A DNA stretch of 64,000 nt from a virus (Duplodnaviria > Heunggongvirae > Uroviricota > Caudoviricetes), in the IMG/VR virus record IMGVR_UViG_3300033148_007488, positions 1 to 64,000 of that record. One strand, given 5' to 3'. A program made the translations under genes and the position numbers. Below, one piece after another: positions 2,448 through 41,690 of the stretch. The number at the start of each line of letters is the position of its first letter. Position 1 is the first letter of the stretch. The notes beneath the pieces were generated by a model. It saw only the letters and a list, made by a program, of their open reading frames with translations, made no database searches and was not told where the DNA came from.

Positions 2448-2673
2448 ATGCAAAATTATAAAGTAATCGCTAGTAGTAGCGATAAATATGGGTTTGAATG
2501 TCAGGTGAACGATGAAATAAAAAAAAGGCTGGGAACCTATTGGTGGTGTAAGCACTCAAGACGACAAGAACCGTGTAAGATATTTTCAAGCTATGGTTAA
2601 AAAGAATGGAAAAAACACAGTTTTAACTCCAAAACAAAAAGAAGAGCTTGAAATCTTTTTTGGGACTTGTTAA
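2448..2673 (+). pseudogene. DUF1737-like small protein split by a frameshift at an A8 homopolymer. Frame A runs 2448-2600 and frame B runs 2521-2673. Removing one A gives MQNYKVIASSSDKYGFECQVNDEIKKGWEPIGGVSTQDDKNRVRYFQAMVKKNGKNTVLTPKQKEELEIFFGTC.
   Basis: I read both frames by hand. The run of 8 A's lies at 2519-2526. The fused product carries 'GWEPIGGV...YFQAMVKK', a motif I recall from the DUF1737 small-protein family. Confidence 0.35.
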
Positions 2674-2748
2674 CAATCAAGCCAAGTATATCACAAGAAC
2701 GGAATATTCTCAAAATTAAAAACCTATTTTGGATTTGGAGGAAAAACA

Positions 2749-2934
2749 ATGAAAATAACAGATCAACAAATATCATCCGCAATCAAAGAATTGGGATTTG
2801 AGATTGATCAAAAAAAAGATTCAACAGAATTTGCCCACACATGCGGAAGAATAAACGAGAAATCCTACAGGCATGAAATAATAATTAGAATCAAAGAAAA
2901 TGCTAAAGATGGAAAAATAGCATATTGTGGGTGA
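2749..2934 (+). CDS. Hypothetical small protein.
   Basis: ORF of 61 aa with SD GGAGGAAAAACAATG. Confidence 0.5.
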   Translation: MKITDQQISSAIKELGFEIDQKKDSTEFAHTCGRINEKSYRHEIIIRIKENAKDGKIAYCG

Positions 2935-2960
2935 TTGAATAATTCTATTTAGGAGGCGAA

Positions 2961-3344
2961 ATGTTTTTAAGACCAATAGACGAGGAAAAAGGGCTTAATA
3001 AGGTTCTAAGCTCAGAAAACTTAAAATCTATAAGGCGTGACCAAACTAAAGAAAATAATTATTTCAGTATTACTTTTGAGTACTATGATCAAAGCAAAGA
3101 AGTTTGGTATGATTACGAAACTCAAGAAAAAAGGGATCAAGAATATGAATGGGTTCTCTCACAGCTAAGTTGCAAAACTAATAACTTTGTGGAAAAACGT
3201 TTCGCAGCACCTTGTGAATTTTGCGGTTACGATAATGACGACTATTATCAAAAATACACCCACGATAAAAGATGTCCGTGGTATGAAATTGATGGGGTAG
3301 ACAGGGTGGGGCATTACAAAAAGTTGAACATGGATATAAAATAG
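2961..3344 (+). CDS. Hypothetical protein with a Cys cluster (C..C...C).
   Basis: ORF of 127 aa with SD TAGGAGGCGAAATG. Confidence 0.55.
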   Translation: MFLRPIDEEKGLNKVLSSENLKSIRRDQTKENNYFSITFEYYDQSKEVWYDYETQEKRDQEYEWVLSQLSCKTNNFVEKRFAAPCEFCGYDNDDYYQKYTHDKRCPWYEIDGVDRVGHYKKLNMDIK

Positions 3345-3524
3345 GTGCTGAGGTTGGACAGGAAAGAAGAAATAAAGGCTACTTATGACACCTATTTACC
3401 CGCAAGTGGTCAACATTTCTGGACCTACTCTAGGTTTTAATGACGGCAGACTTTAAAACAAATACTGTAAAATAGTATTACAGTGCATATTTACACATAT
3501 ACCAAGAAAAATTAAAAGTCAACA

Positions 3525-3989
3525 ATGGACCTATTCAAAAAGAAACAAAAAATAAAAAACCATCCCCCTTGGGTAATTACTTCCTACAGCTCCATTCATA
3601 ATAAAGGGATGGATGAAGAATTTGACGATGGATGGATTGAATTTGAAAACGGCAAAATAGTACGCAGAAGAGAGATGACCGAATTCAGGGGGGAAAAACC
3701 ATATAATAAAGAAGGTTACAAGCCGCCAGATTTAATTGATATATGGAGTTGGCTTTCTAAAATTACCCCTGGGACTAAAGGTTTTCAATACAAAGATTGG
3801 CGTGTAATAAGGGAACATGATTGTTTTATCTATGTTTTAATTGGAGAATCGCAAGGGGAACAGATCAGGAAATACAAGAAAATCATTGGTGACTATACCA
3901 GCCGGCAACAAGATTTTGCTTCTTTCCTCAATATGCTGGACCGTATTCAGGAAGAGAAGGGTGAAGTAACTGATTTAGGGGAACTTTAA
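3525..3989 (+). CDS. Hypothetical protein.
   Basis: ORF of 154 aa. Confidence 0.5.
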   Translation: MDLFKKKQKIKNHPPWVITSYSSIHNKGMDEEFDDGWIEFENGKIVRRREMTEFRGEKPYNKEGYKPPDLIDIWSWLSKITPGTKGFQYKDWRVIREHDCFIYVLIGESQGEQIRKYKKIIGDYTSRQQDFASFLNMLDRIQEEKGEVTDLGEL

Positions 3990-4035
3990 ATGTCCAAAGA
4001 TATAGGCATACATTCAGAACGACAGGAACTAAACT

Positions 4036-4407
4036 ATGAGAGTTGAATATAGGACAGAAGTTAAATATAAAATATTAATATTGACACGTAAAAATATAGA
4101 AATCGTTGATAATTGTAAATGTGGAAGATCAGTAGCAAGGCTAAAATACCCCAATGTTAGTTACCCGTTTAATTTGATTAATCCATTAACTGATTTAATC
4201 GACGGGCATAGTAGCAAATTTCATGAATTTCATAATCTCCCTAAGTTTGAAAATGACTACAACTCTATGGAAGGTGCGCTAAAAGCAATCGATGTTTTAT
4301 ATAGTGAATCAGAATCAGAACATGAATATACAATTTTGCCAATCATAGTTAGAAAAAGGTACGAACATTATGAAGCTGATGAATATAGACCACCTCAGAT
4401 GTATTAA
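4036..4407 (+). CDS. Hypothetical protein.
   Basis: ORF of 123 aa. Confidence 0.45.
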   Translation: MRVEYRTEVKYKILILTRKNIEIVDNCKCGRSVARLKYPNVSYPFNLINPLTDLIDGHSSKFHEFHNLPKFENDYNSMEGALKAIDVLYSESESEHEYTILPIIVRKRYEHYEADEYRPPQMY

Positions 4408-4492
4408 ATTAATTAAAAAAATTATCATAATTTACACACCTCATCCAAAAACAGAAACACAATAAAGTTCTCTTTGAATCTCCCCCAAAAGT

Positions 4493-6010
4493 GTGCCATA
4501 TATGGGTTATATCCGATATATTTCAGGCACAATTCAAAGAGCTTACCCCATGGAAAAAATCCTCATAAAAAAAGAGTTTCACGTTCCTTTTAATCGAAGA
4601 GTAGATCTTATTGGGATTGGCGATTATGACAAAGGAAGTTCTGTAATGGTCAAAATACTTCATCCTCCTAACTTTGAGGATAATGTATTAGAAGCTTTCA
4701 AATCCAATGTAGGAGCAAGTGTTTATATCCCTAAAAAACTTGGGAAAAAAGTTCTCCATCCTATCAATCAAGTCATTCTCAGTGTCTTTCAGGAAGTGTC
4801 GGTTCCTAAAGAAATTCATAAACCAATACCTGCCGTTGAAAAAATTCCTGAAGTCAAAACAAAGAATTCACCTGTACAGCCGAAAGAGGAAAAGAAAAAC
4901 GTTATAAGCAGGATAAAATCCGCAATAAGCAGAGACCACAAAGCACATGCAATCGAAGAAGCCCAAGAGCGCAAAACCCGCTTGGCAAAAACAAAAAGTG
5001 AAGTGGATGAAGCACTAGCCCTTAAACCATCAGGGCTTGACGGGAAACGAATACTTACGGGTGATAACTGTGATTATTCCAGAGGAGCTGCCTTAATCAA
5101 GATTCTAATGGGTCTTCAAATGTGGCACAACAAAGAAGACAACCTTACAAGGCCCAATGAAGGAAAATTACTTTGTGAACGGTATCATGCTATCTCTTTT
5201 TCTGGAATAGAAACTGTTATAGGCTTTTATGTTGCCCTTGGGGATAAAGTAAAAGGAGAAGGTGATCTTGAATATCTTCTGAAGTGGTACAAAGAAGAGT
5301 GCTCAAAAATATATTCAACTCTAAGTATAGAAGAGGCGAAGAAAAAAGGGATGCAGATCATTAACGGGATTACTCCAAAGAAACTAAGGAAAAAGCCAAA
5401 TCCTGGTTTATCAATAAAACATGTTGAAAAAATTGTAGGAAGTTTATTTGAGCACAAAACAACTAGGGAACCTTTAAGGCTGAAAGATATGTATTGTGAA
5501 GTTTACCAGCCTTTATTTCTTGAAGATGAGCAAACGAAAGTCTATTCAATTGCTGAGACACCGGACGCAAGGATTATCGATGTTATTTTGGATACAGGTC
5601 TGGACCCTCTTTATTTCCAATCAAGAAATATTGAAGGTCTAGGAATTTCTTTGGGGCCTTCAAGACGTTCATATGACCTTCCATTGGCTCAAAACAATGA
5701 AAATATTGATATTACAAGCATAGGGGCTTCACCTACTTACAGCCCTCCAAAAGAAGGAAGAGAAGGTATCAACCCCGCTCAAGTAGCTTTTTTGAATAAA
5801 AGGATGGGCTACAGACACGACTATACAGATGTTAAAACATATATGGAGAGTCATCCGTCAAAAGTTAATTATCTTCGTATAGAAGCTGGGCAAACTTACG
5901 GGGTAATGGCGAATTCAATTTTAATGAAAGATTTAAAGGCATGTGAAGAAAGTGCGGAGAGATGTACTTTTTTCACAAATGGTAAAAAAACAGCAATCGG
6001 GTGGAATTAA
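4493..6010 (+). CDS. Hypothetical large protein (505 aa).
   Basis: Long ORF. I recognised no motif in it. Confidence 0.5.
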   Translation: MPYMGYIRYISGTIQRAYPMEKILIKKEFHVPFNRRVDLIGIGDYDKGSSVMVKILHPPNFEDNVLEAFKSNVGASVYIPKKLGKKVLHPINQVILSVFQEVSVPKEIHKPIPAVEKIPEVKTKNSPVQPKEEKKNVISRIKSAISRDHKAHAIEEAQERKTRLAKTKSEVDEALALKPSGLDGKRILTGDNCDYSRGAALIKILMGLQMWHNKEDNLTRPNEGKLLCERYHAISFSGIETVIGFYVALGDKVKGEGDLEYLLKWYKEECSKIYSTLSIEEAKKKGMQIINGITPKKLRKKPNPGLSIKHVEKIVGSLFEHKTTREPLRLKDMYCEVYQPLFLEDEQTKVYSIAETPDARIIDVILDTGLDPLYFQSRNIEGLGISLGPSRRSYDLPLAQNNENIDITSIGASPTYSPPKEGREGINPAQVAFLNKRMGYRHDYTDVKTYMESHPSKVNYLRIEAGQTYGVMANSILMKDLKACEESAERCTFFTNGKKTAIGWN

Positions 6011-16216: not shown

Positions 16217-17491
16217 GTGGGAAAATGTGTCAATAGATATTTACGGAATTATGCACCACCGTTTGCCCATAATACCATATTATGCAACGATTATCTAAAA
16301 ACTAACTTACCCGACAAGGTTTTTATGAATTATCAAGCACCAGCCCCCGCAATGTCTTTGTTCTCAGCAAAAAGACCGGAAGAAAAGATCCACGTAAAAA
16401 AGAAAGAAGTTTACACTCTTGAGGATAGTTACAGCTTCCAAGGTATGCCTATTTCCATTGAAAATAAAGCTGGGAACTATCGCACAGGCAAAGACGGAGA
16501 CGGCCACGAATGGAAAACATTCATGTATTATGATTATGGATATATCAGAAATACAGAGGCTAAAGATGGTGAAGCCGTGGACGTTTATGTCAACAAAGAA
16601 GGCAGGAAATCAAATCTGGTTCATGTAATCCACCAAAAGAAAATTGAAGAAGTAAAGAAGTGGAAAAATGGAATCTGTCCTACCTGCAAGAAAAAGCATT
16701 TCAAATGCAAACACGCTTATGATGAAGATAAGGTTATGCTTGGATTTGATTACCGTGATGATGCAATCAAAGCTTATACCGCTCAATATGATTCTCCTCT
16801 TTTCTTGGGGCCTGTCTCTACCTACACAATTGAGGAATTCAAAGGACATCTCAAGAATTCGTGGGGGAAGAAACTTCCTTATAATAGGTTAGAGAAGGGA
16901 TGTGCAGTCAAAAAAGGGAATACTAGGTTTATAACAACTTCTGAATTGGGTACAAAGGTTGACGAAATGTACAAAGCCGATAAAAAAGAAGGCGAAACAA
17001 GAGATGAGTTTGTTAATAGATCCTTGAAAGAAATTGTAGCCAAACAACAGATGTCTGGGCTGGACAAATCCTATCTAGGACAACCAGGAGATCCAAGAGG
17101 ATCATTCGCATGGTTAAGAGAAAATCTGGATACCGTACCAGCCTCTTCAAAAATAAAAATAAAGAACAAAGTAACACTCGCTACTTACGAAGCACCAAGT
17201 TATTTAAAAACAACCATCGATGAAATATTAACCAGTAAAATGGAGAAAAGTATGGAACCTTATTCAGTCAAAAAACATTCTTGTACATCTGATGAAGATT
17301 ATATGTTGAATCGTGAACAAGGAGAAACCAAACAACAGTACGATTGGCGGATGAGGCTTGAATCCAGAACTTCAAAAGGAAGTCGGATTTGGAATGAAGG
17401 TGTTCATGTAGAAGCTGTAAATGATTATCCTCACGGAATGTACAAATCTACTAAAAAAATTATTGTTCCAACAGAAAAACAGGTGATATGA
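16217..17491 (+). CDS. Hypothetical protein whose N-terminal region resembles the inorganic-pyrophosphatase fold.
   Basis: 'ISIENKAGNYRTGKDGDGHEW..FMYYDYGYIRNTEAKDGEAVDVYV' aligns to E. coli PPase '[21 protein letters not shown]...[25 protein letters not shown]'. The downstream Asp residues are not conserved. The real start may be the internal ATG at 16325 (MNYQAP...). The stop overlaps the start of effector paralog A. Confidence 0.45.
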   Translation: MGKCVNRYLRNYAPPFAHNTILCNDYLKTNLPDKVFMNYQAPAPAMSLFSAKRPEEKIHVKKKEVYTLEDSYSFQGMPISIENKAGNYRTGKDGDGHEWKTFMYYDYGYIRNTEAKDGEAVDVYVNKEGRKSNLVHVIHQKKIEEVKKWKNGICPTCKKKHFKCKHAYDEDKVMLGFDYRDDAIKAYTAQYDSPLFLGPVSTYTIEEFKGHLKNSWGKKLPYNRLEKGCAVKKGNTRFITTSELGTKVDEMYKADKKEGETRDEFVNRSLKEIVAKQQMSGLDKSYLGQPGDPRGSFAWLRENLDTVPASSKIKIKNKVTLATYEAPSYLKTTIDEILTSKMEKSMEPYSVKKHSCTSDEDYMLNREQGETKQQYDWRMRLESRTSKGSRIWNEGVHVEAVNDYPHGMYKSTKKIIVPTEKQVI

Positions 17492-29451: not shown

Positions 29452-31359
29452 ATGATACCCAGCCTACTTCTCTTCAGTCCATTCCAGAAAGGATATGTTC
29501 AGGCCCACACACGTAAAGGAAAAAGAGTAGGTCCTTACTTCACCAAAAGACAGCCCGGACAAGTCCAAGAAAAGCATACCAGAGACCGCTTTATTGACCA
29601 CGACAAAGCCAGTGCATCCAAAGCCCATGAAGAACTTGAATCACTTAAAGCCAAGCACCAAGAATTACTCAATGCAGCCAAGAAGCATCATGATGAAATA
29701 AAAAGCAAAGGACCAGTTGAAGGCGAAAGGGTAGACCACAAAACAAAACTTTCTCATCTCAAAGCAGAAATCAAGAATCAAAAGACTCACATAGACAACC
29801 ATTCCAGAAAACAAAAACTGATCAAGGACCGCTACAAAATAAGCAGCAAGCAGATTACCCAAAGAAAATCAAAGTCTGATCTGGAAAGAAAAATAGCTTC
29901 CCACTCAGACGGACAGAAAAAAACTATTCGTGCAATTCACGAAGCCCATAAAAAAGGTGAATCAAAACTTGAGCCTGGCAGAATTCTTAAAGGCAAAGAT
30001 AAAGACCATATTTATCTTGAAACAAAGCACAAGGACACAGGAGAAGCGCACCATATCGCCATTCATAAAGATGGTTCAGTTAAGGACCCCAATATTCTCC
30101 ATGGTGGAAAATTCGATTCAAAAACACTCAAAGAAGATGCCAAGCCAAAGAAGATTGTAGTTAAGTCTGAACCTAAAAAAGGAGTGACGGTTAAGAAACA
30201 AGAGCCATTTAAAAAAGTTGAGAAATCTGAGGCTAAGAAGATCGGTGTTAAGAAACAAGAGGAGAAAAAACAGACAAGATCGCAGGCCATGAAAGGCAAT
30301 AAGAATGCGTGGAAGGGAGGACCGAAGGATGAACCGAAAAAAGTCAAAGTTAAAACAAAAGAGGGATTGACAGCAAAAACTGGAACTTTAACATCAGGTG
30401 AAAAATCATCTTTGAGTTGGTATTCAGGAGATGGATTCCATAAATTAAATGAATATTTAAGAAAAGATAATGCATCTAAAAATAAGAGTCTTGATAAATT
30501 TACAGATAGTTTAAATAGTGCAATTAGTAAAAGTGAGATCACTAAAGATACAACGCTATATAGAGGCATAAACAATGATGAGTTAACAAAAAAATTCCAA
30601 TCAGTTAAAACTGGAAATAAGATTCCTGTTAGTTCGTTTCAAAGTACATCTTCTAGCGAACGAGCTTTATTTGCTCATGCAGGACTTGTAGGTGTTGCAT
30701 TGAAAATTAATGTTAAAAAAGGAACAAACATAGCTGATCTTGCAGGCAGCGGCACAGCTATGGACGCTAAAGAACAAGAAATCCTGTTGCCAAATAAAGG
30801 GCATTATGTGGTTAAAAGTGTAAGCAAACCAGAAAAAGGTGAATTAGGAAGAACTATAGTTGAAGTAGATTATATTCAAGATGAACAGGAAAAGAATGAA
30901 GATAAAAAAACTTCTAAAAAAGTTGAGAAATCTGAGGCTAAAAAGATTGTTGTTAAAAAATTAGATCAGGAGAAAAAAGAAACCAGGCTACCTGAAATAA
31001 AAAAAGGCCATTATATAAAGCGCAAGATATCGGGGCTCGGAGACAGACCTTCACCTTGGGAATATGTTTCATCTACTGTTAAAAACGGATTCATGGTTGA
31101 GGGTAGACCTTTTACGGTTCCGTTTTCAGATATTATAAGCGTTAGAACAGGAAACCCAGCACTTGGCCGTGGTGACGTGATTTATGATGATGGAAGCATC
31201 CAATCTAGGGTATTAAAGAAATCCATACCCACAACATCCAAACAATTAGAAAACTTATTGCAAGAAGAAAGACTGTTCAAATCCCTCAAATCTCCAGAGG
31301 AAATAAAACTCCTCAAGGAGAAGAGGAAACGAAGAAAGAAACGTAAAAATAAAAGGTAG
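29452..31359 (+). CDS. Paralog D of the packaged/ejected family. It carries the N-terminal module and a C-terminal mono-ADP-ribosyltransferase domain (R-S-E class, C3/Vip2/Alt-like).
   Basis: The N-terminus is MIPSLLLFSPFQKGYVQAHTRKGKRVGPYFTKRQ. The ART motifs, in order, are 'SLSWYSGDGFHKLNEYLRK', 'TLYRG' (Arg codon 30562-30564), 'FQSTSSSER' (STS at 30643-30651) and 'AKEQEILLP' (EQE at 30772-30780). The ART domain is flanked by 45-bp direct repeats encoding KKVEKSEAKKI.VKK. Confidence 0.7.
   Translation: MIPSLLLFSPFQKGYVQAHTRKGKRVGPYFTKRQPGQVQEKHTRDRFIDHDKASASKAHEELESLKAKHQELLNAAKKHHDEIKSKGPVEGERVDHKTKLSHLKAEIKNQKTHIDNHSRKQKLIKDRYKISSKQITQRKSKSDLERKIASHSDGQKKTIRAIHEAHKKGESKLEPGRILKGKDKDHIYLETKHKDTGEAHHIAIHKDGSVKDPNILHGGKFDSKTLKEDAKPKKIVVKSEPKKGVTVKKQEPFKKVEKSEAKKIGVKKQEEKKQTRSQAMKGNKNAWKGGPKDEPKKVKVKTKEGLTAKTGTLTSGEKSSLSWYSGDGFHKLNEYLRKDNASKNKSLDKFTDSLNSAISKSEITKDTTLYRGINNDELTKKFQSVKTGNKIPVSSFQSTSSSERALFAHAGLVGVALKINVKKGTNIADLAGSGTAMDAKEQEILLPNKGHYVVKSVSKPEKGELGRTIVEVDYIQDEQEKNEDKKTSKKVEKSEAKKIVVKKLDQEKKETRLPEIKKGHYIKRKISGLGDRPSPWEYVSSTVKNGFMVEGRPFTVPFSDIISVRTGNPALGRGDVIYDDGSIQSRVLKKSIPTTSKQLENLLQEERLFKSLKSPEEIKLLKEKRKRRKKRKNKR
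30205..30280 (+). repeat. Left copy of a ~45-bp direct repeat (AAAAAAGTTGAGAAATCTGAGGCTAAGAAGATCGGTGTTAAGAAA) flanking the ART domain. The right copy lies at 30919..30963.
   Basis: The protein repeat is KKVEKSEAKKIGVKK / KKVEKSEAKKIVVKK. Confidence 0.5.
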
Positions 31360-31360
31360 T

Positions 31361-31708
31361 ATGACAAAAGAAGATATTGCAAAAATAGCTCATGAAATAA
31401 ATAGGGCATATTGTAAAAGCATAAAAGACCATTCTCAAAAAATATGGAAATGTGCGCCTGAATGGCAAAGGAAAAGTGCTATAACTGGAGTGGAATTCCA
31501 TATTGACAACCCAGGGGCTGGAGTTGACGATTCTCACAAAAGTTGGCTGAAAGAGAAATATGATGATGGCTGGAAATATGGTCCGGTAAAAGACTCGTCA
31601 AAAAAAGAACATCCTTGCTGTGTCCCCTATGAAGAATTACCTGTTGAACAACAGGCAAAAGATTATTTATTCAGGGAAATAGTTCACCAACTTAAAACAT
31701 ATTTATAA
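31361..31708 (+). CDS. Small protein with a RyR-like (ryanodine-receptor domain family) motif, immediately downstream of the ART gene.
   Basis: '...DGWKYGPVKDSSKKEHPCCVPYEELPVEQQAKDYLF' fits the RyR-domain pattern I recall (GW.yG...d...K.hP.LvPy.eLpe.eK..dr). Its start lies 2 nt after the ART stop. Confidence 0.45.
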   Translation: MTKEDIAKIAHEINRAYCKSIKDHSQKIWKCAPEWQRKSAITGVEFHIDNPGAGVDDSHKSWLKEKYDDGWKYGPVKDSSKKEHPCCVPYEELPVEQQAKDYLFREIVHQLKTYL

Positions 31709-33800: not shown

Positions 33801-34166
33801 TTAACTGTTCAGGCATCTTTTACAATTATCTTTTTCCATTTGTTCAATATCAACTGGATAACTTCTACACGCATATGGCCGATATTTGTAAATAGTGCAT
33901 TTATAGGTTGGTTTATTCCTGTCTTTTCTTAGGAAAGGACACCTTATTAATTCATCACCCGTTACAGGACTTATCCACATATCACCAAATCTACCGTTTC
34001 CAAAGTCAGGAAACATCCCTAGATATTTAATTACATGTGGTGCGAATTCTTCCCACTCTTGGATTTGATCTTCGTCTACAGATCCAAGGCCAGCACCATT
34101 ACTGTATTTTGTGCAGCATCCACCGCACTGTTGACATGGGGTTATTTTGTTTTCTATTAGGCTCAT
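33801..34166 (-). CDS. CxxCxxCC-motif protein (putative zinc/iron-chelating domain, UPF0153/YkgJ-like).
   Basis: 'CQQCGGCC' near the N-terminus plus further Cys (C..C) near the C-terminus. Confidence 0.5.
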   Translation of the reverse strand: MSLIENKITPCQQCGGCCTKYSNGAGLGSVDEDQIQEWEEFAPHVIKYLGMFPDFGNGRFGDMWISPVTGDELIRCPFLRKDRNKPTYKCTIYKYRPYACRSYPVDIEQMEKDNCKRCLNS

Positions 34167-34172
34167 TTTAAA

Positions 34173-34511
34173 TTATCCAGTGACAGGGTTCTTTTTCCAA
34201 TCTCTTTTTTTGACTTTATCCCAAGTTAATTGGACAGCTTCTTCAAAGTCAATCCCAACTGAAGAACAATACCCAGATAGGAAAATAACAATATCACCAA
34301 CTGCATCAAAAGCTTTTTCTTTGTGATCAGTGTCAGTTCTAATTTGAAGTTCACTTTTAAGATGAGCGTGAGAGAGTTCGCCTAGTTCTTCCATTACTCC
34401 CATAATGAACATCCATGGTTTAGGATCATCGAAATTGGCTTTAACCCATTCTTTGTGTTCTGATTGTAGCTTTTTAAGCATATGAGCCATCCGCTTTATG
34501 GATTTCAGCAC
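34173..34511 (-). CDS. MazG-like nucleoside triphosphate pyrophosphohydrolase.
   Basis: It has the 'MEELGELSHA' (EE.GE) and 'EKAFDAVGDIVIFL' motifs typical of all-alpha MazG NTP-PPases. Confidence 0.55.
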   Translation of the reverse strand: MLKSIKRMAHMLKKLQSEHKEWVKANFDDPKPWMFIMGVMEELGELSHAHLKSELQIRTDTDHKEKAFDAVGDIVIFLSGYCSSVGIDFEEAVQLTWDKVKKRDWKKNPVTG

Positions 34512-34854
34512 CTTTTAATGGTGGGTTAAAGACACATATAAGAACTGTATCTTCTTCTGCTTTGAATTTATGGTCATCGTGTTTATCCAATATATAAACT
34601 GTATCAGGTGTTATCTCAAAATAGTCCCCATTCTCATTATTATATAGGTGTCCTTTACCTTTAATGCAATAGCATGTTTCAAGATGGTTTTTATAATGCC
34701 AATATTGCCATTCTCCTTTTGGGATCTCAGTTTTCGTTAATGAATATCCCATCCCATCTGATTCTAAAAGTATTCTGTTGCTGATAAATCCACCATTAGG
34801 GCAAAAAACTTGTCTATCTGTTCCTTTTAGATCTTTAATTTTTACGAATTTCAT
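34474..34854 (-). CDS. EctC-like cupin (ectoine synthase family).
   Basis: 'DRQVFCPNGGFISNRILLESDGMGYSLTKTEIPKGEWQYWHYKNHLETCYCIKGKGHL...ILDKHDDHKFKAEEDTVLICVFNPPLKGAEIHKADGSYA' parallels EctC as I remember it ('[58 protein letters not shown]...[39 protein letters not shown]'). Confidence 0.6.
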   Translation of the reverse strand: MKFVKIKDLKGTDRQVFCPNGGFISNRILLESDGMGYSLTKTEIPKGEWQYWHYKNHLETCYCIKGKGHLYNNENGDYFEITPDTVYILDKHDDHKFKAEEDTVLICVFNPPLKGAEIHKADGSYA

Positions 34855-34860
34855 ATTTAC

Positions 34861-36159
34861 CTATAATTTTTTATATTTTTCCATTATCGCCCGTTGTCGA
34901 ATTGCCTGTTCTTTTGTTGGTGCAAGTCCCATATATTTACAGGTGTGATCATTCTTTAGAATTGTTAAAGCAAAGCGTTTCCATGATGCTACGTCACCAT
35001 TATTACAGCTTAACATGTCCAAGTGGTCTGGAAACTTTCTTATTCTAATTCTAGTTAAATTTTTCCTGCCATGATGAGTAAGCCCATTCTCAAAAAACTC
35101 TATTTTATGTTCTTTTAATTCATTGATTATTTTTTCTGGTAGGCCACGCCCTGTCCTGCCCCAAACTTTGAACGATTGGACAAAGCGCATCTTAAAATTT
35201 TCAGCGACTTCCTTTGGCAGAGTGTCTAAAAGAAATTTAGTGAATGACTTCCAAGTATGACCATCAGGAAGTTTAAATGTTCTATAACTCAATTGTTTTC
35301 CATAAGTTGCAATAAAATTTGCACCTTGCACCCTGGCACATAATTTAGCCCATACATGAGGATCAATCACCCTATACAATCCAAGACTTGACTTTGACTC
35401 ACTCATAAATGGTGAAGCAACTCTCATGCTACCCACTGGAATGCCAGCTTTATAGAAAATGTCGTAAAGTTCGTTGTATTCCCATTCAAACTTTGCATTT
35501 GCCACCCAAATATCGTCAGTTTTCCAATCATATATAGGGTAGCAATTATAGACTGTTTTTGTATTTTTCTTAGTCCACATTTGACCTTTGAGAATTGTTT
35601 TTCTTGTATTCATGATAGCCCTGAACCTGTTTAGGCTTTCAGAAGTTCTAATCCCTATAAGGCATGCTGTTTGTTCTCCTTGCCCGTACCAATCACCAAA
35701 TTTATCCCAAAATTCATCGTAGTTCATGTCTTCATAAAAGAAATCAAATTTATGATTGTTAATGTTTACAATATAGTCATCTTTAGGCATTGGCTTAATC
35801 CATCTTTCTTTATCTCTTTCTCCCCAACATTGCCATTCAACAGCATAAGCACTTACCGTACATGGCAGTGTAATAGGTAGGCAACACCAATAAACATCAA
35901 GTAAGTCTAAATTGGCTCTGACAATAGAGTGCATGAAAGCAAGGGAATATTCATAATTTGCTTCATTATCTAATATCATGACACCTATCTTTTTAGTGAT
36001 ATTGTTTTTTCGCATGTAATCTATGAAAAGGTTGAGCATCACTCCACTGTCTTTTCCACCTGAAAAAGAGATATAAATTTTAGGAAAATTATCAAATATA
36101 AATTTTATTCTTTCTTGGCTTGCATCATAAACATTAATTTCTGTATTATATCTTCGCAT
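34861..36159 (-). CDS. PAPS-reductase/PP-loop ATP pyrophosphatase superfamily protein with a C-terminal extension (IbrA/DndC-like architecture).
   Basis: The PP-loop is 'IYISFSGGKDSGVML'. It is 432 aa, in an operon with a ParB-like gene, as in the ibrAB pairs described in E. coli and in phages. Confidence 0.6.
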   Translation of the reverse strand: MRRYNTEINVYDASQERIKFIFDNFPKIYISFSGGKDSGVMLNLFIDYMRKNNITKKIGVMILDNEANYEYSLAFMHSIVRANLDLLDVYWCCLPITLPCTVSAYAVEWQCWGERDKERWIKPMPKDDYIVNINNHKFDFFYEDMNYDEFWDKFGDWYGQGEQTACLIGIRTSESLNRFRAIMNTRKTILKGQMWTKKNTKTVYNCYPIYDWKTDDIWVANAKFEWEYNELYDIFYKAGIPVGSMRVASPFMSESKSSLGLYRVIDPHVWAKLCARVQGANFIATYGKQLSYRTFKLPDGHTWKSFTKFLLDTLPKEVAENFKMRFVQSFKVWGRTGRGLPEKIINELKEHKIEFFENGLTHHGRKNLTRIRIRKFPDHLDMLSCNNGDVASWKRFALTILKNDHTCKYMGLAPTKEQAIRQRAIMEKYKKL

Positions 36160-36394
36160 TTTTCTCCCTTTGTTCTATTTCAATTCGTTTTAATTCTGAA
36201 TACCATTTTGATTTTTTAGGTGTAAAACCTAAACTCTGCATCGAATGGTCATTTTTAAGGATTGCAAAACAAATTGCTTTATAAGAAGGAGCAATTCCAA
36301 GCTGCATCAATTTTTCTGGTACTTCATCAGGAATATCCTCTTTGTAGCCTCTTTTTTTCCAAATGTTTAGATATTTTTTTGCTTTTGTTATCAT
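36146..36394 (-). CDS. Hypothetical small protein.
   Basis: ORF of 82 aa. It overlaps both neighbours, so the exact start is uncertain. Confidence 0.35.
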   Translation of the reverse strand: MITKAKKYLNIWKKRGYKEDIPDEVPEKLMQLGIAPSYKAICFAILKNDHSMQSLGFTPKKSKWYSELKRIEIEQREKNAKI

Positions 36395-36755
36395 GTATTT
36401 CTTTCCAGATAGTGTAATATTTTAATGCCATTGTATCCGCTTCATTCTGTTCTTTTATAGATAGGAGCTTAAAGCCTCCTCTTGCTTCTGATGGCAAACC
36501 TTTAGCATATGCGGCAGAAGCCTGTCCTAGCCATGCTATTTTGTTTAGGCTTTTATTACTCAAAAAATGTTCACACGAGTAAGTCCATTCATTGATAACA
36601 CATTCTAAAGCTGTTTCGAATTGCCATAGGCAAGATAGGAAAATCTTATATTCTTGTTGTGCATATTCTTTAGTCATTTTTAGATCAGCACAACTATCGT
36701 AAAATCCATCTTTATAACATTCCCATTTATGCCAAGGGTGCCAGATCTTTTTCAT
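36327..36755 (-). CDS. Hypothetical Cys/Trp-rich protein.
   Basis: ORF of 142 aa. The start is coupled to the upstream ParB-like stop. Confidence 0.45.
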   Translation of the reverse strand: MKKIWHPWHKWECYKDGFYDSCADLKMTKEYAQQEYKIFLSCLWQFETALECVINEWTYSCEHFLSNKSLNKIAWLGQASAAYAKGLPSEARGGFKLLSIKEQNEADTMALKYYTIWKEIHDNKSKKISKHLEKKRLQRGYS

Positions 36756-37555
36756 TCTGCTTGTTCTAAAAAGTCTTCTCTATTTTCGTAATCATCTTCT
36801 GTGTCAGCTTCCCAACTGTCAGAAAAATCTTTATTGTCAAACAATGCAGCTACACCAGTGATTTGCTTAAGCCTTAAAAGCTCATCTATGCTCATTCCAA
36901 TATGCTTGCAGATCCACCTATCCCCTTTGCCCATCTCAACTAATTCAGCAACGATTGTACTCATTAATTCAACATTATGAGTACCCCTAGCTCTATTGTG
37001 CCGAATAGTTGAAGCAATTCTATCACCTTTGCCCTCTCTCTCTTGATTAATATTAACAATTGGCAGATAACCAAGAATTCTTTTTTTTACTCCATCATTC
37101 TCTTTCCCAACTCTATTACGGTGAAATCCATCAACGACCTCTATATCTTTAGGTTTAGCCCATGCTACAATTGGTTGAGTATATCCGTCTTCAAGTATAG
37201 ACTGACTAAGTAACTCCATTTCAGGAGGGGCTACGGCATTGGGATTATAATCATTAGCATGAACATATTCTGATTTTTCCCATACTACACAATCTACAGG
37301 TTCATTTTTGAAAGGGCTGATTGAGTGCAATTCTTTTTTGACAGTATTTAAAGACTCAATTTTATCGTCCAATGGCATTGATTCTATAAGTTCACTAATA
37401 TTAGATATTAATTCTTTAAGATATCCGTTTTTTTCGGTTTTTTCCATTCTTTCTATTTTTAAAAAAGTATTTATTATTTTACTCATTATTAATCCTATTT
37501 TGCAGTTAACAAGGTTGCGGTATCCAATATCTTCTTTTCTTGATTGTCGAGCCAT
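36752..37555 (-). CDS. ParB-like nuclease domain protein (IbrB-like).
   Basis: 'YTQPIVAWAKPKDIEVVDGFHRNRV' fits the ParB/Srx pattern G.Piv......y.vvDG.HR..a. It is the first gene of the minus-strand operon that ends at 33801. Confidence 0.55.
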   Translation of the reverse strand: MARQSRKEDIGYRNLVNCKIGLIMSKIINTFLKIERMEKTEKNGYLKELISNISELIESMPLDDKIESLNTVKKELHSISPFKNEPVDCVVWEKSEYVHANDYNPNAVAPPEMELLSQSILEDGYTQPIVAWAKPKDIEVVDGFHRNRVGKENDGVKKRILGYLPIVNINQEREGKGDRIASTIRHNRARGTHNVELMSTIVAELVEMGKGDRWICKHIGMSIDELLRLKQITGVAALFDNKDFSDSWEADTEDDYENREDFLEQAE

Positions 37556-37845
37556 TTTGCGAAGGTCTCTGCGGTATCGAAAGGGTATTCAGAGTTCCAT
37601 TCAAATTGTTTAACAATTATTTTAAAACTCCCAAATTTGTAAGTGATGATAAATGTTTTTACATCATATTCTGAATTAACAATGTGTGAATTAAAAAGAG
37701 TATCATAACTCAGATAATGCAAAATTTCACAGATTGTATTTGTTTTCTCTCCTCTTACATCTTTTAGGCAATCTTCAATTGAATACCCATTAGCGCACTG
37801 GAAGGTGCTTTTATATGCGAATCTTATCTTTTCTTCGAGTGTCAT
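37495..37845 (-). CDS. Hypothetical protein.
   Basis: ORF of 116 aa. Confidence 0.45.
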   Translation of the reverse strand: MTLEEKIRFAYKSTFQCANGYSIEDCLKDVRGEKTNTICEILHYLSYDTLFNSHIVNSEYDVKTFIITYKFGSFKIIVKQFEWNSEYPFDTAETFAKWLDNQEKKILDTATLLTAK

Positions 37846-38588
37846 TTTGATTCAATTTCCTGATAGTTATTTTTTATTCTATCCCAGACTCTAGTCTGAC
37901 CTTTTCCGGTGATTAAGGTTCTCTTACTGATGCGGTCTTTTTCGTTTTTGTCTTGGAATGAATATTCATCCACTTCAAACCATTTATAGGTTAGATATTG
38001 TTGGTAAGGTAGATTGTTTTGCAGAAGTAGCCTTGCGTCTCTCATATCACGATAAAGCCTGTTTCTGCCTGTCTGATATCCTTTTTTACATAGAATCTTA
38101 GCAAACTCTTCTATTGTGACTGTACCTTCTGAATATCTGATTGATTCTGCGAATTTTATTTTAGGCTGGTCTTTTTCAATTTTTATATTTAGCCTTCTGT
38201 TCACTTCAAGTACGGCCAACTTTTTAAGCTCTGTGTCTCTGAGCATGTCTATAAGTTCTAACCTTGTTAATTCTTTTGGTGGCTCTTTGATCAGTTTCTT
38301 TTCGCATTCAATAAAATACTTTCTGGCCTGCCTGCCTTTATCGTTCCTCTCAACCATTGACAATTCCTTTGCCATGTCAAGAGTTAGATGGTAATCAATA
38401 GCGGTTCCCCCGTTTTGGGGAATCGATTTTAAGACCATATAATCAATATTTTCTTCAAAATCATATTGTTCGATTCTTCCTTTTACCCATGTTGAAAAAT
38501 CTTTACCAATTTCTAAAAAGGAATGCAGGTCTCTTGCGTTAACTGTTTTAATGCCTTCTGAACTTGTTTCAATTTTTATCAATTCCAT
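37842..38588 (-). CDS. Phage antirepressor (AntA-like N-terminal domain plus KilA-C/ORF6C C-terminal domain).
   Basis: The N-terminal part is 'NARDLHSFLEIGKDFSTWVKGRIEQYDFEENIDY' (AntA pattern ardLh..L.....fs.W.k.ri..y.f.e..Df). The C-terminal part is 'IEEFAKILCKKGYQTGRNRLYRDMRDARLL' (KilAC). Confidence 0.6.
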   Translation of the reverse strand: MELIKIETSSEGIKTVNARDLHSFLEIGKDFSTWVKGRIEQYDFEENIDYMVLKSIPQNGGTAIDYHLTLDMAKELSMVERNDKGRQARKYFIECEKKLIKEPPKELTRLELIDMLRDTELKKLAVLEVNRRLNIKIEKDQPKIKFAESIRYSEGTVTIEEFAKILCKKGYQTGRNRLYRDMRDARLLLQNNLPYQQYLTYKWFEVDEYSFQDKNEKDRISKRTLITGKGQTRVWDRIKNNYQEIESK

Positions 38589-38733
38589 TTTTTATACTCC
38601 TCTCTATTTTTGATAGATACAGGCCAATTGCTCTGCGCACAGCTTCAGACATTGGAACGCCTGATTTTTTGCTGTATTTTTTCAACTGCTCAATCTGTTC
38701 ATCTTCTAAAAAGAAATTCATTTTTGATTTCAT
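38569..38733 (-). CDS. Arc/CopG-like ribbon-helix-helix repressor (54 aa: MKSKMNFFLEDEQIEQLKKYSKKSGVPMSEAVRRAIGLYLSKIERSIKNGIDKN).
   Basis: I translated it by hand; it is below the track cutoff. It has the classic RHH layout and overlaps the start of the downstream antirepressor gene by 20 nt. This is the same arc-ant arrangement as P22 immI. Confidence 0.45.
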   Translation of the reverse strand: MKSKMNFFLEDEQIEQLKKYSKKSGVPMSEAVRRAIGLYLSKIERSIKNGIDKN

Positions 38734-40862: not shown

Positions 40863-41690
40863 CTATCCTGTAGTGTTGATTTTATAAGGAACAAGATCAG
40901 TGTTTTTCAACCTATTTGATATATACACTTGACCTTTTCCGGTAACAGTTATTTTAGTGCATAGTTTATTGATCACTTCGCCTGTCTCATCCTTTATGAC
41001 TTCTTTGCTAAATTCATCATATTTAAACCATCCTGAATTGACCGCACTTTGATATGGAATGTTTTTCCGATTACTAATGAATATCAGTTTTAGTTCTCTG
41101 AGTTTTTTAAATAGGTTATTTTGCCCGATCATATAACCATTCTTACTAAGGATTTTTGAAAATTCTCCAATAGAGATCGCATCATTTGATTCTTGAATTT
41201 TACCAGCGAATTCAACTAAAGGTTTGTCTGCCTCAATTTTCTCTTGAAGCTTTTCTTTTTCTTCAACCTCATAGAGCAAAGCTTTCAACGCTTCTCTGTA
41301 GTTTTGGGGCAGTTTTAATTCTTCTTGAGATACCTTTTTCCCAAACCAATAGCCGTGGAGAACATGAAAACATTCTTCTTGATACTCTTCAACCTTCTTT
41401 CTTGTTTTATTATTCTTTATGTTGTTCGGGTTGACAGTAAAAAGCCATCCATTCAATTTCCTGATAGGAATACACCCCATATTTCTTAATCTTCCATCAC
41501 CGGCAACTATGGCGATATCCCCATAGTCGAACTTTTTACTATTAGACTTTAGCCTTGAAGACTGAGAGGACCAATCCAAACCCATATTTTCAACAACTGA
41601 CTTCATGGCAACATAAATTCCTTTTTCGGTCCTCACCGTTTGAATTTGGTCACCATGAAAACCAATTAGTACTTGTTCTTTTAATGACAT
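40863..41690 (-). CDS. Second antirepressor-like protein (N-terminal Ant/Bro-type domain plus C-terminal KilA-C).
   Basis: The C-terminal 'ISIGEFSKILSKNGYMIGQNNLFKKLRELKLIF' parallels the KilAC region of 37842..38588. The N-terminal 'LIGFHGDQIQTVRTEKGIYVAMKSVVENMGLDW' is antirepressor-N-like. Confidence 0.5.
   Translation of the reverse strand: MSLKEQVLIGFHGDQIQTVRTEKGIYVAMKSVVENMGLDWSSQSSRLKSNSKKFDYGDIAIVAGDGRLRNMGCIPIRKLNGWLFTVNPNNIKNNKTRKKVEEYQEECFHVLHGYWFGKKVSQEELKLPQNYREALKALLYEVEEKEKLQEKIEADKPLVEFAGKIQESNDAISIGEFSKILSKNGYMIGQNNLFKKLRELKLIFISNRKNIPYQSAVNSGWFKYDEFSKEVIKDETGEVINKLCTKITVTGKGQVYISNRLKNTDLVPYKINTTG

Follow-up and report, generated by a model that had tools for sequence, protein, structure and literature searches.

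The 64,000-nucleotide (nt) stretch of viral DNA analysed here (IMG/VR record IMGVR_UViG_3300033148_007488, positions 1 to 64,000; hereafter the window) belongs to a myovirus-like phage with genes for a tail sheath, a major head protein, tail proteins, a primase and two antirepressors. A near-identity DNA search with 24 kb around the region of interest, positions 33801-37555, gave no match to a close relative among isolated phages. This region holds seven tightly packed genes on the minus strand (Table 1), as an earlier reading of the DNA without database searches (the sequence-only reading) had described and the list of open reading frames (ORFs) bears out. Five of them, which encode an IbrB-type ParB protein, two small proteins termed X142 and S82, an IbrA-like PP-loop protein and an EctC-like cupin, constitute a conserved unit. 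The ORFs of X142 and S82 had previously been left unnamed and are conserved core members.

According to the ORF coordinates, the genes overlap at the junctions ParB/X142 (4 nt), X142/S82 (68 nt), S82/IbrA (14 nt) and EctC/MazG (38 nt), and are separated by gaps of 6 nt at the junctions IbrA/EctC and MazG/CxxCxxCC. The EctC/MazG overlap shrinks to 8-17 nt with a MazG start at an internal Met. An internal Met may also be the true start of the ParB protein, because its annotated start runs 61 nt into the upstream ORF. A consensus scan of the sequence found no terminator-like site on the minus strand within 33801-37555.

Table 1 Genes of the minus-strand block and regulatory genes upstream of it
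Gene	Position	Strand	Product length	Remarks
IbrB-type ParB	36752-37555	-	267 aa	core member
X142	36327-36755	-	142 aa	all-helical small protein, core member
S82	36146-36394	-	82 aa	paralogue of the C-terminal module of IbrA/DUF3440, core member
IbrA-like	34861-36159	-	432 aa	PP-loop ATP pyrophosphatase (PAPS-reductase fold) with DUF3440, core member, presumed catalytic subunit
EctC-like Fe(II) cupin	34474-34854	-	126 aa	core member, unfused here
MazG-like NTP pyrophosphohydrolase	34173-34511	-	112 aa	outside the conserved module
CxxCxxCC protein (PF03692/YkgJ-type)	33801-34166	-	121 aa	last gene of the block, outside the conserved module
Antirepressors (AntA/KilAC)	37842-38588, 40863-41690	-		upstream of the module, same strand
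Ribbon-helix-helix (RHH) regulator	38569-38733	-		upstream of the module, same strand

Conservation of a five-gene unit

Co-occurrence was assessed over 89 loci with an EctC-like relative, comprising 80 IMG/VR contigs obtained by profile search, metagenome contigs around close homologues, and the genomes of Mycobacterium phage Gaia and Pseudoalteromonas phage XCL1123. Locus content was scored by searching six-frame ORFs with the window proteins, for the first 86 loci and then with the closest relatives of the window (L088 and L089) added. Among the first 86 loci, IbrA and ParB were each found in 85, X142 in 81 and S82 in 78, and the few absences mostly fall at contig ends. Over all 89 loci, the EctC-like gene was accompanied by both IbrA and IbrB-type ParB in 88, by X142 in 83 and by S82 in 80. 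EctC and ParB are fused in frame in 62 of the 86 loci, and the commonest order is IbrA - EctC::ParB - X142 - S82. The gene orders across loci are cyclic permutations of one order; that of the window, ParB-X142-S82-IbrA-EctC, is common to about nine loci. It is also found in L088 and L089, whose IbrA is 85% identical to that of the window and in which unrelated genes follow EctC.

The sequence-only reading had joined the cupin, MazG and the CxxCxxCC protein to a ParB/PAPS-reductase pair in a single seven-gene pathway and had proposed a search for the gene set in other phages. This search divides the claim. The association of the cupin with the pair holds, as its fusion to ParB attests and as the GenBank name of Gaia gp104, 'ectoine synthase/ParB multidomain protein', already indicates, whereas neither MazG nor the CxxCxxCC protein had a match (E<=1e-3, phmmer and motif search) in the 88 other loci, L088 and L089 included. 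A functional unit of all seven genes is thus rejected. The single sub-threshold match to MazG among these loci lies in L001 (E=0.0038), and the nearest IMG/VR relative of MazG is encoded on a contig (L174) without any module gene. For the CxxCxxCC protein, no relative was found in the phage database or in IMG/VR. MazG is co-located and translationally coupled and is not part of the conserved module; both proteins are passengers specific to the phage lineage of the window.

Profile searches of each ORF upheld the family assignments made from the sequence, those of ParB and MazG less clearly than the others and that of MazG as the weakest. The MazG protein stays below the Pfam cut-offs of both MazG (14.9, cut-off 22; E 0.034) and PRA-PH (19.9, cut-off 21.3; E 0.001), matches phrog_715 (7.8e-9) and contains 'EELGE' and 'DAVGD' as the metal-binding EExxE and DxxxD motifs. 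The CxxCxxCC protein exceeds the cut-off of PF03692 (40.1, cut-off 23; 6e-10), its motif 'CQQCGGCC' being located at residues 11-18.

The guanine-plus-cytosine (GC) content of the module follows that of its flanks (r=0.94) in carrier genomes of 28-63% GC, and IbrA remains 65-86% identical across phages spanning this range (65-82% within the loci). These two observations point to long residence under strong purifying selection. Gaia and XCL1123, two culturable phages, carry the same five genes as the window, with IbrA DNA 68-69% identical to it. In Gaia (gp104/gp103) the order is IbrA-EctC::ParB-X142-S82 with EctC and ParB fused; the window differs in its separate genes, its permuted order and the MazG and CxxCxxCC genes that follow. 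Over ~1 kb, the IbrA DNA of the window (36% GC) and that of Gaia (L002, 55% GC) are 68% identical, which reflects strong conservation of the protein and not recent transfer; recent horizontal transfer as the explanation of this identity is ruled out by the module GC tracking flank GC. Among 80 EctC matches in species-representative bacterial genomes, only the best three carry the module. These are metagenome-assembled genomes of Gallionella, Bacteroidota and Planctomycetota, and the other matches are ordinary cellular EctC proteins.

Recurrent neighbours of the module in the 88 loci are genes for a superfamily 2 (SF2) helicase (35 loci) and a PDDEXK nuclease (27 loci), with prim-pol/VapE, RecT-like, VRR-NUC and DnaB genes as further recurrent neighbours. 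Individual loci show other genes nearby. In L089, the module is immediately preceded by a small-terminase gene (Terminase_2); L088 has a large-terminase-like gene, a weak Pfam match, a few kb upstream. In the viral contig L003, an anti-Gabija gene of the Gad2 family (PF26128, positions 459-1472) lies ~2 kb upstream of the module.

Features of the five core proteins

The ParB protein matches phrog_2159 (2e-67) and shares 51% identity with the protein annotated as IbrB in Escherichia phage PhiR5_2. Its first ~85 residues are a lineage-specific N-terminal extension. The motifs NDYNPN, VVDGFHR and TIRHNRARG are invariant or nearly so among the 34-83 sequences compared; the protein has a C-terminal helix-turn-helix (HTH), and the helix GMSxDELLRLKQ is conserved to the same degree. 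As a single sequence, it stays below the cut-off of Pfam ParB_N (15.5, cut-off 26.3; E 0.019) and finds in the PDB only the HTH of a designed repeat protein. A fused relative (P0321) exceeds the ParB_N cut-off (29.7), and the profile of the IbrB family matches the structures of the DNA-binding CTPases ParB (4umk, 4e-5) and Noc (7ol9, 6e-4). P0321 is a ParB-X142 fusion, as is P0344, a metagenomic protein of 637 aa. The ParB box of P0344 is split between the conserved 'DGF' and 'TQPIV' by an intein-like insert of ~265 aa; sites of catalytic importance are where inteins are usually located.

X142 is modelled as a helical domain with a predicted local distance difference test score (pLDDT) of 91. 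It had no family match in profile searches, and its predicted fold had no counterpart in the PDB; a profile search of 1.8 billion cluster representatives retrieved 780 relatives. One of these, P0338 (316 aa, metagenome), is a fusion of a small-terminase (Terminase_2) domain to X142. S82 matches positions 137-178 of the Pfam model of DUF3440 (2.8e-7) and aligns with the C-terminus of IbrA with 94% probability in hhalign. X142 and S82 are joined in L037 and L090 and in the fusion proteins P0191, P0323 and P0329 (~220-230 aa). In the window, the 68-nt overlap of their genes (36327-36394, minus strand) places S82 in the +1 frame; it is A-rich with two A7 runs, and the overlap recurs in related loci. 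Frameshifting or transcriptional slippage giving an X142-S82 product is possible. S82 has, on the other side, its own ATG and a conserved N-terminus, which speaks against programmed frameshifting.

IbrA consists of an N-terminal PAPS-reductase domain (PF01507: 38.8, cut-off 22.5, 1.2e-9; residues 28-236) and a C-terminal DUF3440 domain (PF11922: 197, cut-off 25, 3e-58; residues 239-419). The canonical PP-loop SGGKDS is present and invariant among the relatives compared. IbrA shares 33% identity over 417 aa with the IbrA of PhiR5_2 (E 3e-73) and 43% with its counterpart in Streptococcus phage CHPC877; together with the likeness of the ParB protein to the PhiR5_2 IbrB, this supports the IbrB/IbrA-like nature that the sequence-only reading had assigned to the pair. 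At E<1e-10, IbrA has more than 7853 matches among database proteins; full-length identity is 76-86% throughout the top 120. A distant DNA search in E. coli genomes found no relative of the gene. A four-cysteine motif, WCC..LPC..(x10)..CWG, is an invariant feature of EctC-associated IbrA and occurs in the window, in Gaia and XCL1123 and on a Desulfobulbaceae-bin contig. Where EctC is missing, in phages of E. coli, Pseudomonas, Clostridium and Streptococcus, IbrA lacks the motif, which hence co-varies with EctC. By sequence, IbrA had no useful match in the PDB. The nearest folds are adenine-nucleotide alpha-hydrolases, including the tRNA modifiers TtuA, NcsA and TilS, and the PP-loop amide ligases NAD synthetase, asparagine synthetase and sugar amidotransferase are also among the fold neighbours.

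CysH and DndC were considered as identities for IbrA and ruled out. Against the CysH models TIGR00434, TIGR02057 and NF002537, IbrA scores 21.6, 20.9 and 23.2 (cut-offs 165, 254 and 154), and its PP-loop is of the ATP type. The C-terminal catalytic-cysteine motif of CysH is ECGLH; the sequence of IbrA contains no ECG motif. Against DndC (TIGR03183) the score is 25.7 with a cut-off of 290.4, and DndA, DndD and DndE partner families are not nearby, so that IbrA is neither DndC nor SspD.

The EctC-like cupin scores above the cut-offs of both EctC models (PF06339: 149.2, cut-off 27, 9e-44; NCBIfam PRK13290: 147, cut-off 128) and matches the structures 5onn (1e-25) and 5bxx (1e-24). The iron triad E59/Y87/H95 (Glu-57/Tyr-85/His-93 in family numbering) is kept. 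Together with T42, Y54, H57, G66, L89, F109, P111, G115, E117 and H119, it is invariant or nearly so, these being the 13 strictly conserved residues listed for EctC (PMC4795551). In both respects, cut-offs and conserved residues, the protein is like EctC and 'solitary' EctC. It is unlike the EctC of the EctABC pathway in its placement in a clade separate from cellular EctC, in its fusion to ParB and in lacking ectA and ectB. The survey of neighbours in 88 loci found neither gene beside EctC and no recurrent acetyltransferase or aminotransferase family. A further difference lies at the substrate 'piston' Trp-21, reported as completely conserved (PMC6344544): the position holds Phe in 88 of 92 phage-type EctC proteins, that of the window included, and Trp in 70 of 76 cellular ones. 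W52, C61 and F97 are new invariant residues of the phage type.

Taken together, the EctC-ParB, ParB-X142 and X142-S82 fusions and the likeness of S82 to the C-terminus of IbrA suggest that the five proteins act together, a single multi-subunit machine being the most economical reading.

Described relatives and candidate functions

Classical IbrA/IbrB pairs consist of the same two families, encoded by adjacent overlapping genes. Unlike the module, they come without EctC, S82 and, usually, X142, and no WCC..LPC..C motif occurs in their IbrA; in the E. coli, Pseudomonas and Clostridium proteins a ~32-aa insert in DUF3440 is missing too. Pseudomonas phage Amjad_SA (L171, positions 2509-4709) is intermediate between pair and module, with ParB, an X142-like protein (E 6.5e-6) and an IbrA, and without EctC, S82 and the four-cysteine motif. 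This architecture suggests a stepwise elaboration of IbrAB. The sequence-only reading could not match the block to a described system; likewise, no described function was found in the literature searched. None of the papers found dealt with the mechanism of IbrAB/DUF3440 or of phage EctC, and none with the cassette of five genes, its two small proteins, the cysteine motif linked to EctC or the genes of Gaia and XCL1123. The IbrAB pair itself is already known, and for the EctC-ParB fusion the sole record is a product name in databases. The five-component version of IbrAB is distinct, very widespread, unusually conserved and tied together by gene fusions, and its enzymatic parts point to a testable chemistry of ATP-dependent adenylation, a cysteine or Fe-S site and Fe(II) cyclodehydration.

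Among characterised systems, phosphorothioation of DNA is carried out by DndB, a member of the ParB superfamily, and DndC, a PP-loop protein that holds a 4Fe-4S cluster (PMC10853773). DndB-DndC, as well as SspD and BrxP, resemble the module in the pairing of a ParB-superfamily protein with a PP-loop ATP pyrophosphatase of the PAPS-reductase fold, which in these systems has a cysteine or Fe-S site and DNA as target (PMC10853773; PMC12839542). The Dnd system differs in lacking counterparts of DUF3440, EctC, X142 and S82, and the module in turn lacks the DndA, DndD and DndE partners. A phage protein with a PAPS-reductase domain is known to counter Dnd defence (bioRxiv 10.1101/2021.05.05.442762). 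This PAPS-reductase-domain::Dam protein of Vibrio crassostreae podoviruses is likewise a phage-encoded PAPS-reductase fold, with a demonstrated counter-defence role; it is unlike IbrA in its fusion to a methyltransferase, in having neither DUF3440 nor a ParB partner, and in its protein family (phrog_424 vs phrog_2302 for IbrA).

Because DndB with DndC represents the closest characterised logic and a different phage protein with a PAPS-reductase domain defeats Dnd defence, we tentatively favour, with a probability of about 0.4, the view that the core is a five-protein elaboration of IbrA/IbrB which would act as one ATP-dependent complex and modify nucleic acid covalently, most probably the phage DNA. 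The target, chemistry and purpose that we infer are as follows. The IbrB-type ParB/Srx protein would carry the complex to DNA via its HTH, with the possible help of a DGFHR pocket that binds NTP. The PP-loop of IbrA would adenylate a target oxygen, either a base carbonyl or carboxyl or a backbone phosphate, and AMP would then be displaced by a nucleophile, which may be an amine or sulfur supplied via the subfamily-specific four-cysteine site. The EctC domain, usually fused to ParB, could contribute an Fe(II) centre for chemistry of the amide-plus-amine to cyclic-amidine type on an attached small molecule or its precursor. X142-S82 would serve as an adaptor subunit, the S82 half of which mimics the C-terminal module of IbrA. 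Modification would take place during replication and may shield the DNA from host nucleases or defence systems, or change gene expression. The invariance of the PP-loop, the restriction of the four-cysteine motif to EctC-associated IbrA, the profile matches of IbrB to ParB and Noc and the replication and recombination genes nearby are consistent with this proposal.

A more specific version is doubtful. It holds that the cassette installs a new DNA hypermodification, with IbrA attaching an amino-acid-derived group to a base or the backbone by adenylation, with the help of its subfamily-specific cysteine or Fe-S site, and the ParB-tethered EctC making or closing a cyclic amidine ring, an ectoine-like tetrahydropyrimidine. 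If true, DNA adducts of a new class would protect thousands of environmental phages, with hosts from many phyla, against host defences, and the role of IbrAB would finally be explained.

Several points weigh against a DNA-modifying complex. DNA modification as such is a step that we infer. The cupin pocket of EctC is small and closed, and its contacts to a free amino-acid ligand are almost all kept, which fits a small-molecule substrate better. ParB/Srx folds include small-molecule kinases, of which SbnI is a weak profile match (0.029). The model of IbrA is of moderate confidence (pLDDT 71) and leaves the cysteine loop unmodelled. The matches of IbrA to the PADLOC and NCBIfam DndC models are partial, with ~65 residues aligned (those to PADLOC cover residues 159-229), and far under the cut-off; the PADLOC scan of the other six proteins of the block gave no match. 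Modification partners such as a sulfur donor or a methyltransferase did not recur near the module in the neighbour survey of 88 loci. Finally, the sole genetics on IbrAB reportedly points to the activation of prophage gene expression and not to protection, a view mirrored in GenBank product names.

Some of these points would be accommodated if the module made or destroyed a free cyclic-amidine (ectoine-like) metabolite, which is unlikely. In this case, IbrA would use ATP to activate or ligate a carboxylate, a small molecule would be the substrate of the ParB/Srx domain as a kinase or NTPase, and ring closure would fall to EctC; the product could serve in signalling, in protection or in the inhibition of a host defence. 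Besides the iron triad, EctC retains the free-amino-acid contacts R27, T42, Y54, E59, S25 and F109, it is ~41% identical to cellular EctC, and the lineage-specific F23, W52, C61 and F97 suggest an altered yet related substrate. The match of the ParB/Srx-fold serine kinase SbnI and the amide ligases among the fold neighbours of IbrA fit as well. The conserved HTH of IbrB and its best profile matches, the DNA-binding ParB and Noc, argue against this pathway, as do the setting of the module among replication and recombination genes, the fusion of X142 to a small terminase, a DNA-binding protein, and the lack of EctA/EctB-like or transporter partners.

The same HTH would also suit a regulator of transcription, in which IbrB binds phage or host DNA and activates expression together with IbrA, the enzymatic domains merely sensing or producing a ligand. 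GenBank product names of the type 'co-activator of prophage gene expression' point in this direction, as does the position of the module directly downstream of the Ant and RHH genes; in PhiR5_2 and CHPC877, the neighbours of IbrAB likewise include antirepressor or cro-like genes. We consider regulation alone rather unlikely, since the strict retention of the PP-loop, the four cysteines and the iron triad across thousands of homologues argues for catalysis under selection. An identity of ~80% from Mycobacterium to Pseudoalteromonas hosts, which differ in promoters and RNA polymerases, would be unexpected as well. DNA modification could, moreover, be the means of activation, so that the two explanations are partly no rivals.

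If IbrA acted like TtuA, NcsA or TilS, its target could be a base in host or phage RNA (tRNA or rRNA), and the module might alter translation or help the phage to escape a defence directed at RNA. tRNA is the substrate of most PP-loop modifiers characterised so far, and the cysteine cluster recalls the Fe-S sites of tRNA thiolases. An RNA target is nevertheless improbable: the partner of IbrA is a ParB/HTH protein, as in the Dnd and Dpd systems acting on DNA, the window contains no tRNA genes, and profile searches of the window proteins detected no RNA-binding domain.

That the genes are ordinary auxiliary metabolic genes, a viral CysH for sulfate assimilation and an ectoine synthase for osmoprotection, is very improbable in spite of the database labels 'PAPS reductase' and 'L-ectoine synthase' and of similar annotations that are common in virome surveys, because IbrA, with its ATP-binding PP-loop and obligate link to ParB, is neither CysH nor DndC, and the ParB-fused EctC of a clade apart from cellular EctC has no ectA or ectB nearby; the auxiliary metabolic cassette that the sequence-only reading had offered as an alternative is contradicted on both counts. 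This bears on virome annotation, where at least one survey counted the DUF3440 clade among cysH auxiliary metabolic genes (bioRxiv 10.1101/2021.01.05.425418), phage PAPS reductase is assigned to the sulfur genes in another, and databases label the EctC-like genes as ectoine synthases; according to the present evidence, the genes are neither.

Other genes of the window

Three further genes of the window, all on the plus strand, encode proteins with recognisable domains. The first (29452-31359), in the region of the virion genes, encodes a lysine-rich protein of 635 aa with an ADP-ribosyltransferase exoenzyme domain (PF03496, 9e-17; residues 312-471), in which R, STS and ExE-like motifs are readable. 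This protein may be an injected enzyme that modifies the host. The adjacent gene (31361-31708) encodes a protein of 115 aa with a RyR domain (PF02026, 4e-11). Lastly, a protein of 424 aa (16217-17491) contains an 'InPase' domain (PF18823, 9e-30) of a type known from large polyvalent/DarB-like phage proteins.

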